This document shows positions 43,466-49,979 of a stretch of DNA of 64,000 bases, piece by piece. Positions within the stretch are counted from its first letter, which is position 1, and each line of letters opens with the position of its first letter. The stretch lies in NCBI RefSeq assembly GCF_049075655.1, contig NZ_CP157522.1:1-64000 (forward strand). The letters are read 5' to 3'. Position numbers and translations under genes: made by a program. The stretch is from Methanothermococcus sp. Ax23 (GTDB lineage: Archaea; AGJL01; Methanococci; Methanococcales; Methanococcaceae). The notes beneath the pieces were generated by a model. The model did no database searches and was not told the origin of the DNA. It worked only from the letters and a program-made list of their open reading frames with translations.

Positions 43466-46400
43466 ATGAAAGAGGTTAAAGGAACAGTTAATTTTAGAGA
43501 AATGGATAAAGAAATAAAAAAATTTTGGGAAGATAATGAAATATACCAAAAGGTAAAAAAACTAAACGAACACTATCCAGAATATTATTTTGTAGATGGT
43601 CCTCCATACTGTTCTGGTGCGATACATTTGGGAACTGCATGGAATAAAACAATAAAAGACACAGTATTGAGATTTAAGAGAATGCAAAATTATAATGTTC
43701 TCGATAAAGCGGGCTGGGATATGCACGGGCTTCCTATTGAAGTAAAGGTTGAAAATGAATTCAACATAAAATCAAAAAAGGACATTGAAACAAAAATTGG
43801 AACAACAGAATTTATTGAAAAATGTAAGGAATTTGCACTGAGAAATAAGGAAGTAATGGAGAATCAGTTTAAAAATTTAGGAATATGGCTTGACTGGGAA
43901 AATGCATACATGCCTATAAAAAACGACTATATAGAGTCAGGATGGTGGAGTTTAAAAAAGGCACATGAAAAAAATCTTCTTTCAAAAGATTTAAGGGTTG
44001 GATATTGGTGTCCAAGATGTGAAACTTCACTTGCAGAACATGAGGTAAGAGGAGAATATAAAGAAGTTCTCGACCCATCAGTTTATGTTAAATTTAAACT
44101 AATGGATGAAAAAGAAAAAGATACCTACCTTGTAATTTGGACAACAACACCATGGACTTTAATGTCAAATCTTCTTGTTTCAGTTCATCCAGATTTCGAT
44201 TATGCCTATGTTGAAGTTGTTTTAGAAAGAGATGGAGAAGAGATAAAAGAAACATGGATAATAGCTGAGGCATTAGTTGAGGAAGTGATGAAAAAGGCAG
44301 GTAAAAGCAACAATATAAAATCTTACAACATAATAAAGACAGTAAAAGGAGCGGATTTAGAAGGGATAAAATATATACATCCACTGCTGGAAGAAAACGA
44401 AAGACAGAAAGAATTTGCAGAAATCGAAAATGCCCATACTGTGGTATTGGGCGAGCATGTTAGTTTAGATGGTGGAACAGGTTTAGTTCATACTGCACCA
44501 GGGTTTGGTGAAGAGGACTTTGAAGTTGGTAAAAAATACGATGTTCCGATATATTCCCCAATAGATGACGAAGGAAGATATATAGAAGGAAAATGGAAAG
44601 GAACCTTTGTAAAAGATGCTGATGACGATGTAATAGAAACATTAAAAAATAAAAATCTCTTAGTTTCAGCTGGAAAGATAAAGCACACGTATCCGCACTG
44701 TTGGAGATGTAAAACACCACTTTTATTTAGAGCTACGGAGCAATGGTTCTTAACTATATCAAAGATAAAGGATGACATAATAGAGCATGCAAAAACCGTT
44801 GATTGGGTGCCAAACTGGGTAGAAACAAGGTATATAAATGGAGTTAAGTTCGTTGGAGACTGGAATATATCAAGGCAGAGATACTGGGGAATACCACTTC
44901 CAATATGGGTATGTGAAGAATGCGGAAAATATGAAGTTATAGGAAGTGTTGAAGAATTAAAGGAAAAAATGATAAACGACATTCCATTGGATGATTTGCA
45001 TAAACCAACAGTTGATAAGATTATTTTAAAATGTAGCTGTGGAAAGGAAATGAAGAGGGTGCCTGATGTTCTCGATGTCTGGTATGATTCAGGACTTGCT
45101 CCTTATGCTTCAATAAATGCCAAAGAACTTAAAAAAGCTGATTTCATCGTTGAAGGAAATGACCAAGTTACAAAATGGTTCTATTCCCAGCATGCATTAA
45201 GTGCAATTGTATTTAACGATATACCATACAAAAAATGTATGATGCACGGATTTGCACTTGATGAAAACGGAAACAAAATGAGTAAAAGTTTAGGAAATGT
45301 TGTAAATCCTGATGAAGTAGTGGAAGAGTATGGTGCGGATTTACTGAGGTATTATTTACTTAGTGCAAACAAGGCATGGGAAGATATAAGATTCTCATAC
45401 AATGAGCTCGGCGAGGTAAAAAGTTTATTCAATACACTTTGGAACTCATACACATTTGCAGTTAATTATATGGTGCTTGATAACTTTGTTCCAAATGAGG
45501 AATATATGAATTATTTAAGGGATGAAGATAAATGGATAATAAGCAAAATAAACAGCTTAACAAAGGAAATAATTGAGGATTTAGAAATTCCGCATCTCCA
45601 TTCATACACATGGAAATTAAGGGAATTCATACTTAATGATTTAAGCAGATGGTATATTAAACTCATAAGAAGCAGAACATGGATGGAGAAGGACGACCCT
45701 GACAAGCTTTCAGCATACCAAACATTATACTATGTTTTAATGAAATTGATTACAATCCTATCGCCAGTTGCACCGCACATAAGCGAAAAGATATATCAAA
45801 ACATGAAAACAGAGGATATGCCAGAAAGTGTATTCATGAATAAAATAACTATTGATGAGGAACTCATAGACAGAACACTTGAAGAAGATATTGAGGTTGT
45901 AAGGGAAATTGTAGATGCCATATTGAGAGGAAGGGACAAGGTAAAACACACACTGAGGTATCCAATATCAAAAATAATACTTCCAAAGAGCATTGAAAAT
46001 GTAGTGGAAAAATACGGATATATCATAAAAGAACAAGGCAATGTTAAAGAAATAGATGTTGAAGAGTTCAAAGGAAACATGACTGTTAAGCCAAATTATA
46101 GAGAGCTCGGAAAGGTATTCAAAAGTGAAGTTCCAAATGTTGTAAAAATCATTAACTCCATGAATCCAAATGAGCTCAGTGAAAAATTGAAAGAAGAAGG
46201 AAAAATAACAATTGATGGATATGAGATAAAACCTGAATATGTTGAGTTTAAAATAGAAATTCCAGAAAACATTGTTGGTATGGAGTTTTCAAAAGGAAAT
46301 GTTTATATAAACATTGAACTAACTGAGGATATTATAAAAGAAGGGCTTATGAGGGAGGTAATTAGAAGAATCCAGTCAATGAGAAAAGATATGGATTTGG

Positions 46401-46588
46401 ATATTGAAGAGAAGATAAAGGTAAAAATGGAAGGCATTGAATTCAGTGAAGATACATTAAAATCCATTGAGAAAGAGGTTAGAGGAACATTCTTTGATGA
46501 AATAAAACCAGATTATGAACAGGAATGGGAAATAAAGACACCAAATAAGGAAGTTTATAGGATAAAAATAGGGGTAGAAAAATTATAA
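43466..46588 (+). CDS. ileS: isoleucyl-tRNA synthetase (archaeal type)
   Basis: DGPPY..HLGT, GWDMHGLP, WTTTPWT, ISRQRYWG, KMSKS. Confidence 0.98.
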   Translation: MKEVKGTVNFREMDKEIKKFWEDNEIYQKVKKLNEHYPEYYFVDGPPYCSGAIHLGTAWNKTIKDTVLRFKRMQNYNVLDKAGWDMHGLPIEVKVENEFNIKSKKDIETKIGTTEFIEKCKEFALRNKEVMENQFKNLGIWLDWENAYMPIKNDYIESGWWSLKKAHEKNLLSKDLRVGYWCPRCETSLAEHEVRGEYKEVLDPSVYVKFKLMDEKEKDTYLVIWTTTPWTLMSNLLVSVHPDFDYAYVEVVLERDGEEIKETWIIAEALVEEVMKKAGKSNNIKSYNIIKTVKGADLEGIKYIHPLLEENERQKEFAEIENAHTVVLGEHVSLDGGTGLVHTAPGFGEEDFEVGKKYDVPIYSPIDDEGRYIEGKWKGTFVKDADDDVIETLKNKNLLVSAGKIKHTYPHCWRCKTPLLFRATEQWFLTISKIKDDIIEHAKTVDWVPNWVETRYINGVKFVGDWNISRQRYWGIPLPIWVCEECGKYEVIGSVEELKEKMINDIPLDDLHKPTVDKIILKCSCGKEMKRVPDVLDVWYDSGLAPYASINAKELKKADFIVEGNDQVTKWFYSQHALSAIVFNDIPYKKCMMHGFALDENGNKMSKSLGNVVNPDEVVEEYGADLLRYYLLSANKAWEDIRFSYNELGEVKSLFNTLWNSYTFAVNYMVLDNFVPNEEYMNYLRDEDKWIISKINSLTKEIIEDLEIPHLHSYTWKLREFILNDLSRWYIKLIRSRTWMEKDDPDKLSAYQTLYYVLMKLITILSPVAPHISEKIYQNMKTEDMPESVFMNKITIDEELIDRTLEEDIEVVREIVDAILRGRDKVKHTLRYPISKIILPKSIENVVEKYGYIIKEQGNVKEIDVEEFKGNMTVKPNYRELGKVFKSEVPNVVKIINSMNPNELSEKLKEEGKITIDGYEIKPEYVEFKIEIPENIVGMEFSKGNVYINIELTEDIIKEGLMREVIRRIQSMRKDMDLDIEEKIKVKMEGIEFSEDTLKSIEKEVRGTFFDEIKPDYEQEWEIKTPNKEVYRIKIGVEKL

Positions 46589-46711
46589 GGTTCCAGCCGA
46601 AGCGATAGCGAGGCTGGAATTTTGGATGCACACTTTTTTAAAGGGTGCATAAAAACGCCTTCCGAAACTGTTATATATTAGATGGGTGTTAGTTATTATT
46701 GGTGAGTAAAT

Positions 46712-47341
46712 GTGAGTTTAGAAAGAGTATATACGATGAAGGAAGCTTGTGAATTGTTGGGAGTTCATATAAAAACACTACAAAAATGGGATAGGGAGGG
46801 AAAAATTAAATGTGTTAGAACCATAGGAGGAAAGAGAAGAGTTCCAGAGAGTGAGATAAAACAAATCTTAGGAATTAAAGACAAAGAACAAAGAAAAATT
46901 ATCGGATATGTAAGAGTATCATCAAATACACAAAAGGATGATTTAGAAAGACAAATGGACATGATAAAATCATACGCAAGAGATTTAAATTGGAATGTGG
47001 AAATATTAAAAGATATTGGTAGTGGATTAAATGAAAAGAGGAAAAACTACAAAAAACTTTTAAAAATGGTTATAAACCGAGAAGTTGAGAAAGTAATAAT
47101 TACTTACCCAGATAGATTGACGAGATTTGGTTTTGAAACATTAAAAGAATTCTTCAAATCTTATGGAACAGAGATAATTGTTATTAATAAAAAATATAAG
47201 ACACCACGAGAAGAGTTAGTAGAGGACTTAATAACTATCGTCTCCCATTTCGCAGGAAAATTATACGGAATGCGTTCCCATAAGTATAAAAAACTTACAA
47301 AAACCATTCAAGAAATTGTAAGTGATAATAATGCCAAATAA
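46712..47341 (+). CDS. tnpA: IS607 serine recombinase TnpA (MerR-HTH plus resolvase)
   Basis: N-terminal [35 protein letters not shown]. Confidence 0.95.
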
Positions 47342-48638
47342 AAACAAAATCCCAACCGAAATCATCCTAACATACAAAGTTAAACACAATTACGATTTAA
47401 AAAACCTACCAGAAGAATTTCTAAAAATCTCAAATGAAGCCATTAATATTATTTGGAAAAATATAAATTGGAAAGAAAAGACAATTAAACATCGATACAA
47501 AGTAGGAAAGAAATACAAATACTACAAAACTACTCGACTAATCCCAGAAATTCCAAAGGATAATGATTTCAAAAGAGAGTTAAGAAATCACTCATTAAAA
47601 GGTTGGGAGTTTGCATCTCATTATATCGATGGAGCTATTAAAACCGCCTACTCTACAATAAACAGTTGGAAATCAAATTATTTAAACGGTAACAGGGAAA
47701 TAAACAAACCAACATTCAAAAGACCTTTTGTTAGAGTTAAAAACACCCTAATAAGACATGATAAAGAAAATGGAAATATAAGAATTACCATAAAACCGAG
47801 AAAGGAGTATTTGGTTTTAAATATTAAGGATGCGTGGTTCTACGAAAAAATTAAGAACTTTAATGTTGGAGAGGTTATTTTAAAGGATAATGAGGCATTA
47901 ATAACCTTCAAAAGACAGTTGGATTTATCTGATAAGGAAGTAATTATTGGAATTGATAGTAATTTAAAGTCATTGGACTTATATCACTCAGAAAAAGGTT
48001 GGATTAGAGTTGATTTGTCTGAATTGCATAGGATTAAGGGGATTTATGATGTAATAATCGATAGGTTAAAATCAATCTATAAAAAAGCCCCTAAGAGGAT
48101 TAGCAAACTACTTAGAAAATACTGGAATAGGAGAAAAAATCGAGTTAATGATTTTATTAACAAACTCACTTCCCAACTATCTAAACTCTTTCCTAATGCA
48201 ATTTTAGTATTTGAAGATTTAGATAAGTTTAACATGTATGGTAAAAACTCTAAATTCAATAGGGATTTAGATAGAAGTAATTGGAGAAGAATAGCTGGGA
48301 AATTAGAGTATAAGAGTGTTGTTGTTTATGTTAATCCCCACTACACTTCAAAAACCTGTCCCGTATGCGGGAGTAGAATGGAGTCCCAAGAGGGGGAGGT
48401 TGTTAAATGCAATAATTGTGGGGATTTTAATAGGCAATTTGTTGGTTGTTTTAATGTATTTAAAAGAGGAATTAAATTAGTTGAAAAATTATTAGGCGGA
48501 GTTGGGGTTCCCGTGACTGGGGTGAAGGTCGATGATTTACTCTCCGATGAACCCAGAGGAGAGTTGAGATTGATGCCACCCAATCCCGATGTGAGTTATA
48601 TTGTAGATTTAAATGGTAGAGCTCTTTTACAAGTATAA
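47331..48638 (+). CDS. tnpB: TnpB RNA-guided nuclease family protein
   Basis: RuvC-I IGIDSN, Ruv[22 protein letters not shown] zinc finger; RuvC-III position reads NRQ rather than xRD. Confidence 0.9.
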
Positions 48639-48682
48639 AAACTCACCAATACTCACATTGGGAAGACCCCTAGTAAGGAAGT
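48490..48682 (+). ncRNA. putative TnpB omegaRNA scaffold plus flanking guide
   Basis: GC-rich stretch overlapping the tnpB 3' end up to the right end; position inferred from known TnpB loci, boundaries approximate. Confidence 0.45.
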
Positions 48683-48728
48683 TTATAAGATAAAAATAAT
48701 GCTTGAAAGAACAAATAATAAAAATTAA
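48663..48728 (+). pseudogene. displaced second copy of the ileS 3' end
   Basis: encodes KTPSKEVYKIKIMLERTNNKN* versus ileS KTPNKEVYRIKIGVEKL*; 32/36 nt identical to 46535-46570. Confidence 0.8.
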
Positions 48729-48812
48729 TTTATTTTATTTAAAATCTTTTAGAAACACTTAAATACTATTTTATCATATATGCATGATAAATTCTCAAAT
48801 CTCGGTGAAATT

Positions 48813-49979
48813 GTGGATATATATTTAATGTTTTTTATAATAATTACATCCATATTTATAATGCCCATTATATTAAAAAGGTTTAATATTCCAGGTATTA
48901 CATCAGTAATGCTGGCGGGTATTCTTATTGGACCTTATGGGCTTGGGTTAATAGACATGAACGAAGCATTAACTATATTTTCAGAATTTGGAGCAATTTT
49001 CCTAATGTTTTTAGCTGGAATGGAGGTTGATAACGAAACATTGAGAGAAGAATTTAAAAATTCAACAGTTGTAAGCCTGTTCTCTCTGGTAATACCTGCT
49101 ATTGGGGGATATATCATAGGAAAATTGTTTGGGCTTGATTTTATTGGTGCTTTGCTTTATGCGGCAATATTTTCATCACATTCCGTTGGTATAGTATATA
49201 GCTTAATGAACGAATTAAACTTAACAAAATCAAGATTTGGAACAACTGCACTGAGTGCCACAATAGTTGTTGATTTAGTAAGTTTAATTGTATTATCTGT
49301 AATAATAAAGATGAGCACGAATATCCAGAATTCTGATATATTCTATTTTATACTGATGGTATTGCTGTATATCTCAGGACTCCTTCTGACGATACCCTAC
49401 ATTTCAAAAATAATATTCAAAAGATGTGCGCATCTCCACATTAAAAAAATACATTTTGTATTATTCATAATACTTGTTTCAATACTTGCTGGGGAGCTTA
49501 TAGGACTCCACCCAATCATTGGAGCATTTATTACTGGAGTGGCAGTTTCAGAGGCTCTTACAAAAGAGGAACATGACGAACTATTGAATAAAAATTTAAA
49601 TGCAATAGGATATGGTTTTTTTATACCTATATTTTTCCTCACATTGGGTATGACTACGGACATTAGAGTATTAACTGATTTGAAGAACATCTGGTTGGTA
49701 TTGGCAACCATAGTTGGAGCCTCAATTCTAAAAGTGACTTCCGGATACTTCTCCTTTAAGCTTATTGGGTACGATAAAATAAAAAGCTTCTGCGGCGGGT
49801 TGCTAACTATACCAAAAATATCCGCTTCATTAGTAGCCGCATCAGTCGGTCTTGAACTCGGAATTATTTCAAGAGAATTTTTTGTCGCAATAGTAGTTCT
49901 GTCTCTGGTGAGCTCTATGATAACACCAATATTTGTTAAAAACCTTGTTGTCAAATATAATCGGGCATTTGTTGAATAA
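48813..49979 (+). CDS. cation:proton antiporter (CPA2/NapA-like)
   Basis: LAGILIGP, FLMFLAGME, IIGAFITG, FFIPIFF; many TM helices; GTG start after GGTGA. Confidence 0.88.
   Translation: MDIYLMFFIIITSIFIMPIILKRFNIPGITSVMLAGILIGPYGLGLIDMNEALTIFSEFGAIFLMFLAGMEVDNETLREEFKNSTVVSLFSLVIPAIGGYIIGKLFGLDFIGALLYAAIFSSHSVGIVYSLMNELNLTKSRFGTTALSATIVVDLVSLIVLSVIIKMSTNIQNSDIFYFILMVLLYISGLLLTIPYISKIIFKRCAHLHIKKIHFVLFIILVSILAGELIGLHPIIGAFITGVAVSEALTKEEHDELLNKNLNAIGYGFFIPIFFLTLGMTTDIRVLTDLKNIWLVLATIVGASILKVTSGYFSFKLIGYDKIKSFCGGLLTIPKISASLVAASVGLELGIISREFFVAIVVLSLVSSMITPIFVKNLVVKYNRAFVE

Follow-up and report, generated by a model that had tools for sequence, protein, structure and literature searches.

Nested insertions as the probable origin of an ileS tail split by an IS607-family element in Methanothermococcus sp. 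Ax23

Insertion sequences (ISs) of the IS607 family, such as IS607 of Helicobacter pylori and CboIStron of Clostridium botulinum, encode a serine-recombinase TnpA with an N-terminal helix-turn-helix (HTH) domain and carry tnpB downstream. As far as the published account goes, they insert without a target duplication, show the same dinucleotide at both junctions and have a left-flank motif equal to the target motif (bioRxiv 10.1101/2023.11.20.567912). For CboIStron, that account gives the target motif TGGG as the transposon-adjacent motif (TAM) and describes an omegaRNA scaffold that ends with the core dinucleotide (bioRxiv 10.1101/2023.11.20.567912). We analysed a 64,000-nt stretch of the archaeon Methanothermococcus sp. 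Ax23 (contig NZ_CP157522.1, positions 1 to 64,000; hereafter, the window), in which an element with these family traits lies next to ileS, the gene for isoleucyl-tRNA synthetase. Whereas CboIStron combines a GG core and TGGG with a group I intron, this element has a CC core and (Y)GCC on the tnpB strand, no group I intron and a TnpB with an NRQ motif. Sequence resembling the ileS 3' end flanks it on both sides. This arrangement probably arose from a nested pair of insertions, in which a short hairpin-forming element inserted first, with duplication of its target, and the IS607-family element then entered the dead copy.

TnpB proteins are RNA-guided nucleases of the OMEGA type (obligate mobile element-guided activity), and by analogy a guide would be expected directly after the right end of the element, matching the IS-free site and following a structured 3' region. 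Unlike those nucleases, the TnpB in the window lacks the canonical RuvC-III aspartate, and its activity is a prediction. RuvC-III typically reads DRD or NAD, and the available account also describes several TnpB branches with an altered motif, for which activity is only inferred (PMC10691335).

A second described process, insertion with long target duplication, concerns restriction-modification (R-M) units in bacteria; as far as the published survey goes, no archaeal case was retained (Furuta et al. 2010, PMC2853133). The hairpin element resembles that process, as described there, in its direct repeats of >30 bp that are single-copy in relatives, in an insert without transposase or integrase, in the frequent targeting of gene 3' ends and tRNA genes and in amplification through the repeats (PMC2853133). 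It differs in what is inserted, since the inserts in that description are kilobase-sized R-M units, whereas here they are structured, 60-75 nt long, present in many copies and strictly oriented (PMC2853133). At ileS, the repeat is 39 nt long, the closest relatives (genomes G010 and G016) have a single tail, and the insert is a 60-nt non-coding hairpin element and not an R-M unit. Our literature searches retrieved no archaeal or small-element insertion with long target duplication, and no description of the two-hairpin element.

MITEs (miniature inverted-repeat transposable elements), repetitive extragenic palindromic sequences and bacterial interspersed mosaic elements (REP/BIME), and modular BOX-type elements are short, multi-copy, hairpin-forming and patchily distributed. 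The hairpin element is likewise short, multi-copy, patchy and partly modular. Unlike MITE-type repeats, it has neither terminal inverted repeats nor a short fixed target duplication, and shows instead two independent hairpins, variable duplications of 21-70 nt and arrays in which element and target repeat in tandem. Cleave-and-rescue (ClvR) systems are synthetic toxin-antidote drives, and the locus resembles them in superficial layout only, with a nuclease locus beside an essential gene whose resident copy is mismatched. In contrast to ClvR, the rescue is not on the element, the perfect target is non-functional and the competence of the nuclease is doubtful.

The duplicated ileS tail and the IS607-family element

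The features of the ileS region and of the IS are the following.

43466..46588, plus strand: ileS, isoleucyl-tRNA synthetase, intact, 1040 aa (open reading frame, ORF; Pfam tRNA-synt_1, Anticodon_1 and DUF5915)
Within 43466..46588, plus strand: live ileS C-terminus (tail 1), ...KTPNKEVYRIKIGVEKL followed by the stop
46532..46570, plus strand: upstream 39-nt repeat copy, part of live tail 1 (local alignment after IS removal)
46589..46648, plus strand: two-hairpin repeat element, 60 nt, non-coding (fold, nhmmer, covariance model)
46649..46659, plus strand: opening 11 nt of the downstream copy of the repeat (dead tail 2), with the CC crossover dinucleotide as the last two letters
46660..48670, plus strand: IS607-family element, ~2013 bp including one CC core, right end ...GGGAAGACCCC (seven-copy alignment, three genomes)
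46712..47341, plus strand: tnpA, serine recombinase with N-terminal MerR-like HTH (Pfam Resolvase 2.3e-25, HTH_17, MerR)
47322..48638, plus strand: tnpB, 435-438 aa, RuvC-I GIDSN, RuvC-II FEDL, RuvC-III NRQ (Pfam OrfB_IS605, Cas12f1-like TNB)
48671..48728, plus strand: remainder of dead tail 2, in which 48671-48698 belongs to the repeat and the diverged rest reaches the stop at 48726-48728

A sequence-only reading of the window had noted that 36 nt of the ileS end (46535-46570) recur with 32 of 36 identities at 48663-48698, in a frame open to the stop at 48726-48728, and that TGGG stands at both 46526-46529 and 48659-48662. Both observations are confirmed, and BLAST between the two ileS-like stretches gives 89% identity. 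The ileS likeness extends to the left of the IS607 element too (46649-46659), and the true direct repeat is 39 nt long, pairing 46532-46570 with 46649-46659 plus 48671-48698 at 34 of 39 positions once 46660-48670 is excised in a script. With the IS removed in this way, tail 2 is uninterrupted and keeps its reading frame, the alignment score is 53 with a period of 117, and the two repeats bracket the hairpin element. The two ileS tails are real, and the repeat score lies far above that of random sites: at 2000 random genome positions the mean was 18.1 (sd 4.8), and 0.45% reached a score of at least 48.

The IS607 element probably entered a second ileS tail that already existed, and it now separates repeat position 11 from position 12. 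No IS interrupts the upstream copy, which continues for 28 nt beyond the matching point, so that the simplest history places the duplication first and the IS, in the downstream copy alone, second.

The ends of the IS were called from an alignment of seven copies, namely this one, a second copy in the same genome (G000, C1:1510565-1512578; 97% identical), one in G021 and four full-length copies in G022, the last two genomes contributing copies of 80-83% identity. All seven share 46658..48670, and the sequences beyond both ends are unrelated. Each copy starts at the CC before TTCCGAAACTG (46658), preceded by G in six cases and by A in one, and the left flanks end in (Y)GCC in 6/7 and in TACC in the seventh; the left end carries GTGAGT-type subterminal repeats. 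At the other end, all seven finish in ...GACCCC (48670), a TnpB clade that is only ~50% identical also has a right end of ...ACCCC, and three short contigs of the RNA-library run X13 stop exactly at 48670. The element has no target duplication and shows CC at both junctions on the tnpB strand. Its TnpA scores 236 bits against NCBIfam NF033518 (IS607 family transposase; cutoff 110), and the element is clearly mobile, with two copies 97% identical here and several in G022.

These boundaries change the earlier picture of the locus. The sequence-only reading had placed the right end at 48662 because it assumed a GG core; the seven copies end 8 nt further on, and a different right end in other copies was an outcome that the reading had itself listed as telling against it. 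The stretch 48663-48670 is IS sequence that happens to resemble ileS. The reading's expectation of insertion at a GG core without target duplication stands for the absence of a duplication and falls for GG and TGGG, in place of which we find a CC core and a (Y)GCC flank on the tnpB strand. As to whether 46530-46683 travels with the IS, a check that the reading had proposed, the copies give a left end at 46658/46660, and 46530-46657 is absent from the other six.

Two side observations concern the IS and its relatives. In record 2 of the run X13 contigs, from another organism, an IS copy located elsewhere matches the window from 46650, 8 nt to the left of the defined end, which could reflect a target preference or a few flank bases carried along. 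Segments of ~110 nt that are 74-75% identical (one 95%) to the tnpB 3' end at 48487-48595 occur at ~9 places in the genome (for example C1:1514265-1514371 and 469154-469260), each adjoining an inverted 35-nt stretch that resembles window positions 48435-48469. These segments may derive from other TnpB families or be solo scaffold relics.

The two-hairpin repeat element

The 60-nt element starts directly after the ileS stop and ends at the second tail, and contains two pairs of stems.

46591-46598 and 46612-46619, plus strand: stems of hairpin 1
46628-46633 and 46643-46648, plus strand: stems of hairpin 2

The sequence 46589-46648 folds with a z-score of -5.6, and nhmmer returned ~25 matches to it in this genome. 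An alignment of 20 copies showed compensatory changes in 13 of the 20 stem pairs, with covariation in both stems; 88.5% of its cells were paired, compared with 24-46% in slid controls, and none of 500 shuffles reached the observed values. A covariance model detected the element in 20/40 genomes of the order and 4/13 of the genus, a patchy distribution; the highest count per genome is 34 copies, and Ax23 has 24. Family members are 60-75 nt long, and some copies are modular, with extra hairpins. An Rfam scan of 46400-48900 at E <=1 found no family for the hairpin element or for the IS 3' region.

We surveyed the flanks of 17 hairpin-element loci in this genome for direct repeats, with a threshold score of >=37 that 0.55% of 2000 random sites reach. 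Fourteen of the 17 loci passed it, with repeats of 21-70 nt and periods of 85-148 nt. The remaining three scored 14 (a half element), 30 and, at ileS, 17 before and 53 after removal of the IS. The targets are tRNA-type 3' ends at eight loci (seven of them called tRNA genes, 2-42 nt upstream and co-oriented), protein-gene 3' ends at six loci, ileS included, and a gene start on the other strand at two. At all of these target loci (8 + 6 + 2), hairpin 1 is the one nearer to the gene body and hairpin 2 the one nearer to the orphan copy.

Comparison with the closest relatives, G010 and G016, whose IleRS sequences are 91-93% identical over the last 200 aa, provides empty sites in both directions. 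Each has a single ileS tail without the hairpin element. At three further loci, G016 or G010 holds the element plus repeat and the target is single-copy in this genome; in a fourth case, a degenerate half element remains here; and one locus has one element unit here and two in both relatives.

Two alternative identities of the element were rejected. As an att-site relic of a tRNA-integrating element, it would not account for repeats that run <=50 nt past the tRNA ends or for protein genes among the targets; as the left end of the IS607 element, it should be common to the other IS copies, and it is not.

Elsewhere in this genome, beyond the window, a 768-aa gene carries at its 3' end a perfect array of seven units of 112 nt (C1:869110-869894). 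Every unit combines the hairpin element with a 46-nt copy of the gene end, and the array closes in a truncated element-like start. The loop of hairpin 2 (46628-46648 and other copies) reads T6AAA, a T-run in the forward direction with a reverse complement that is TATA-box-like. Speculatively, a T-run acting as a terminator, or the TATA-like reverse, might explain the single orientation relative to genes.

The proposed history of the ileS locus follows this family pattern. In a first step, the hairpin element would have landed directly after the ileS stop, and at least ~39 nt of the ileS 3' end would have been duplicated. Of the two copies, the upstream one would have stayed the working C-terminus, and the downstream one would have become a dead fragment. 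In a second step, the IS607 element would have integrated at a CGCC site 11 nt into the dead copy, by crossover at CC and without a target duplication.

Beyond ileS, we tentatively suggest, as a set of ideas that together is more doubtful than not, that the element belongs to an undescribed class of non-autonomous mobile DNA of Methanococcales that inserts beside the 3' ends of tRNA and protein genes and, now and then, beside gene starts. Such an element may duplicate 21-70 nt of its target, always with the intact copy on the hairpin-1 side, and may amplify into perfect arrays. Methanococcales are polyploid, and a possible route is filler capture, in which the element joins sister chromosomes broken at staggered positions, possibly by using microhomology carried from its previous flanks. 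Each insertion would leave a decoy gene end; the decoy at ileS may have captured the IS607 element, giving a guide that nearly copies an essential gene, and escape from self-targeting could then lie behind three synonymous changes that the live tail shows around the insertion point (-6, -3 and +1).

The TnpB nuclease site and the predicted guide

Two further features were predicted at the right end of the IS.

48470..48670, plus strand: presumed omegaRNA scaffold, from the tnpB 3' end to the IS right end (inferred; fold)
48671..48690, plus strand: predicted guide, first 20 nt of the right flank, inside dead tail 2 (analogy with CboIStron)

By analogy with the scaffold and TAM layout of CboIStron, the guide would start at 48671 and the TAM-equivalent would be (Y)GCC, with 46649-46659 doubling as left flank and TAM-equivalent of the IS. 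The predicted scaffold at 48470-48670 has a fold z-score of -3.27, and none of 200 shuffles was as stable. Run X13, an RNA library available as contigs without RNA ends or strand, covers the IS at ~95% identity.

Short perfect hairpins with GAAG-type loops are present in the tnpB 3' region of IS copies L026, L034 and L040 (G022) and L016, L027 and L035 (G016, G021). They occupy the region of the predicted scaffold, and their loops resemble hairpin 1 of the repeat element. Separately, in three of the G022 copies, the TnpB match stops at residue 393.

In a HMMER alignment to a solved TnpB-like chain, the TnpB of the window keeps the aspartate of RuvC-I (GIDSN) and the glutamate of RuvC-II (FEDL), while RuvC-III reads NRQ in place of DRD or NAD. 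The protein thus does not show the complete D-E-D catalytic triad. NRQ is conserved in all ten clade members examined, at 50-100% identity, and the score against NCBIfam guided_TnpB (85.6 bits) falls below the cutoff of 100. Cleavage by a TnpB of this kind cannot be assumed, and its nuclease competence appears doubtful.

A scan of the genome with 48671-48690 found a single perfect site, which is the guide region itself. The best near-match lies in live ileS at 46543-46562 and differs from the guide at 3 of 20 positions (1, 3 and 18); the letters before it are ...CACC, against ...CGCC at the IS site. The earlier proposal that the guide is an ileS allele to which the working gene is seed-mismatched therefore survives in part: the guide does originate from an ileS tail and the live gene is a near-match, whereas the mismatch positions differ from those first given. 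Such a mismatch would follow naturally once the two copies of the repeat diverged. With G010 and G016 as the reference, changes stand at repeat positions 6, 9, 12 and 29 in the live copy and at 9 and 14 in the dead one, and five of these six changes lie <=6 nt from the IS junction (p ~0.05-0.1, a hand estimate from positions). Three changes in the live tail, the synonymous ones at -6, -3 and +1 named above, surround the insertion point; selection against self-targeting of the live tail may have acted.

The sequence-only reading had built on this layout a history in which the IS607 element entered the working tail, the gene was completed by a replacement C-terminus, and TnpB cuts IS-free ileS while sparing the recoded resident gene. 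The ileS-tail origin of the guide, the three mismatches with the live gene, the three synonymous changes around the insertion point and the polyploidy of Methanococcales all speak for it. We nevertheless hold it to be very improbable. The right end lies 8 nt further on and the upstream tail is not part of the IS; the segment 46530-46657, the supposed replacement C-terminus, is absent from every other IS copy, so that the IS carries no rescue. The duplication follows the pattern of the unrelated hairpin element, and the perfect target is the IS-free form of a dead fragment, located downstream of an intact stop. An IS-free allele would keep the live tail, so that cutting the dead tail would not remove an essential function. 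The missing RuvC-III aspartate in all ten clade members also argues against it, as do the two of the three 'escape' states (ACA and CCA) that are common in the ileS of other species and the borderline clustering estimate. The cleave-and-rescue or homing arrangement in an essential gene that this history implied is thus not borne out, and the ileS locus is not a designed or gene-drive-like arrangement.

Under nested insertion, the flank serving as guide would be dead-tail sequence, to which the live tail is a near-match only as a diverged sister copy. In the usual TnpB model, such a guide would re-target the IS-free dead tail, for homing or retention of the IS, and not a functional ileS allele.

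Relatives, population data and competing histories

Full-length ileS homologues were present in all 23 family genomes searched. A 20-nt probe at the boundary between the hairpin element and tail 2 gave five metagenome matches and one genome match. Four of the five metagenome matches carry ileS tail 1, the element and the IS left end, while the fifth and the single genome match are chance hits in unrelated bacterial DNA. The right junction, where the IS end meets tail 2, was seen in contigs of three runs.

Three of the four metagenome contigs (L110, L112 and L113) follow the window up to 48670 and then share a flank that differs from it, and their IS right end is one base shorter; either assembly switching at a repeat or an IS-mediated rearrangement would produce such a flank. 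As a sign that assemblies can switch at this repeat, these departures speak for an assembly artefact or a chance likeness of the tails. Against that, both junctions recur in independent runs and contigs and the repeat score is far above random, and we give this explanation almost no credence.

Compared with 45600-46588, contigs L110-L113 show mosaic patches of 50-200 nt that switch between the states of this genome and G016/G010-like states, for example at 45814-45955 (L110), 46087-46372 (L112) and 46433-46493 (L113). This pattern points to frequent gene conversion in ileS.

Another species of the genus presents a different arrangement at the same gene end. In G017 (C103:15294-21792, loci L048 and L064), an intact ileS is followed by a 2.5-kb insert with a methylase-like ORF of 112 aa and then ORFs of 333, 80 and 62 aa, which is likely to be an R-M cassette. 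Behind the insert lies a second, dead stretch of ileS that corresponds to its last ~600 nt and has an internal deletion. The hairpin element was looked for at the ends of this insert and is absent. The G017 locus is an independent long target duplication of the classic type at the same gene end.

Several observations weigh against nested insertion as the history of the Ax23 locus. None of the 23 family genomes, four runs and five metagenome matches yielded an IS-free allele in which the element precedes an intact second tail, and no contig in runs X3, X4, X8 and X13 joins across the IS; the proposed order of events is accordingly one read from the architecture. The likeness of the two tails is confined to 39 nt, beyond which the final 18 nt of the live tail and 30 nt of the dead one align unconvincingly, so that no clean duplication runs through the stop. 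Within the 39 nt, the relatives are slightly nearer to the dead copy, which shares 35 positions with G010 (33 for the live copy) and 34 with G016 (32). The last 200 nt of ileS contain 23 lineage-specific changes, about twice the average density, the mean being ~5 per 100 nt; other 100-nt windows of the gene reach 11, and the denser 3' end is therefore not decisive.

The dense 3' changes, the nearer dead tail and the mosaic patches in population contigs would also fit import of the live tail. In such a history, a foreign segment with an ileS 3' end and the hairpin element recombined into the locus, joined by homology within ileS on the left and by illegitimate or microhomology-mediated joining on the right, with the IS arriving before or after; the live tail would be foreign and the dead one native. 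The lineage-specific changes cluster at 46387-46577, and the distal dead tail (..LER....KN before its stop) resembles C-termini found in relatives further away. In contig L113, positions 46438-46493 are G016/G010-like, whereas the sequence from 46495 onwards, across tail 1, the element and the IS, is that of this genome, and this switch of state between 46493 and 46537 places recombination breakpoints just upstream of tail 1. Three closely related copies of the hairpin element also share ~10 nt identical to the ileS end just before hairpin 1, as if flanking sequence had been carried along. Set against these points, the live tail ends in ...KL at its stop, as in the two closest relatives; elsewhere, the two repeat copies of one locus have lineage-specific changes in common, as expected from duplication in place; and the mosaic patches run all along ileS and are not specific to the tail, all counts being small. 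We consider import unlikely, and retain nested insertion as the probable history.

On this history, two ordinary insertions gave rise, as a by-product, to a striking layout in which a guide-encoding flank resembles an essential gene. For the IS607 family, the locus illustrates that end calls made from the GG rule alone can err by 8 nt, which alters every statement about seed mismatches, and a mobile clade with Gln for the RuvC-III aspartate raises the question of whether its TnpB cuts. A hairpin family with long, strictly oriented target duplications may, in turn, offer a natural system of many copies in which to study that rearrangement.

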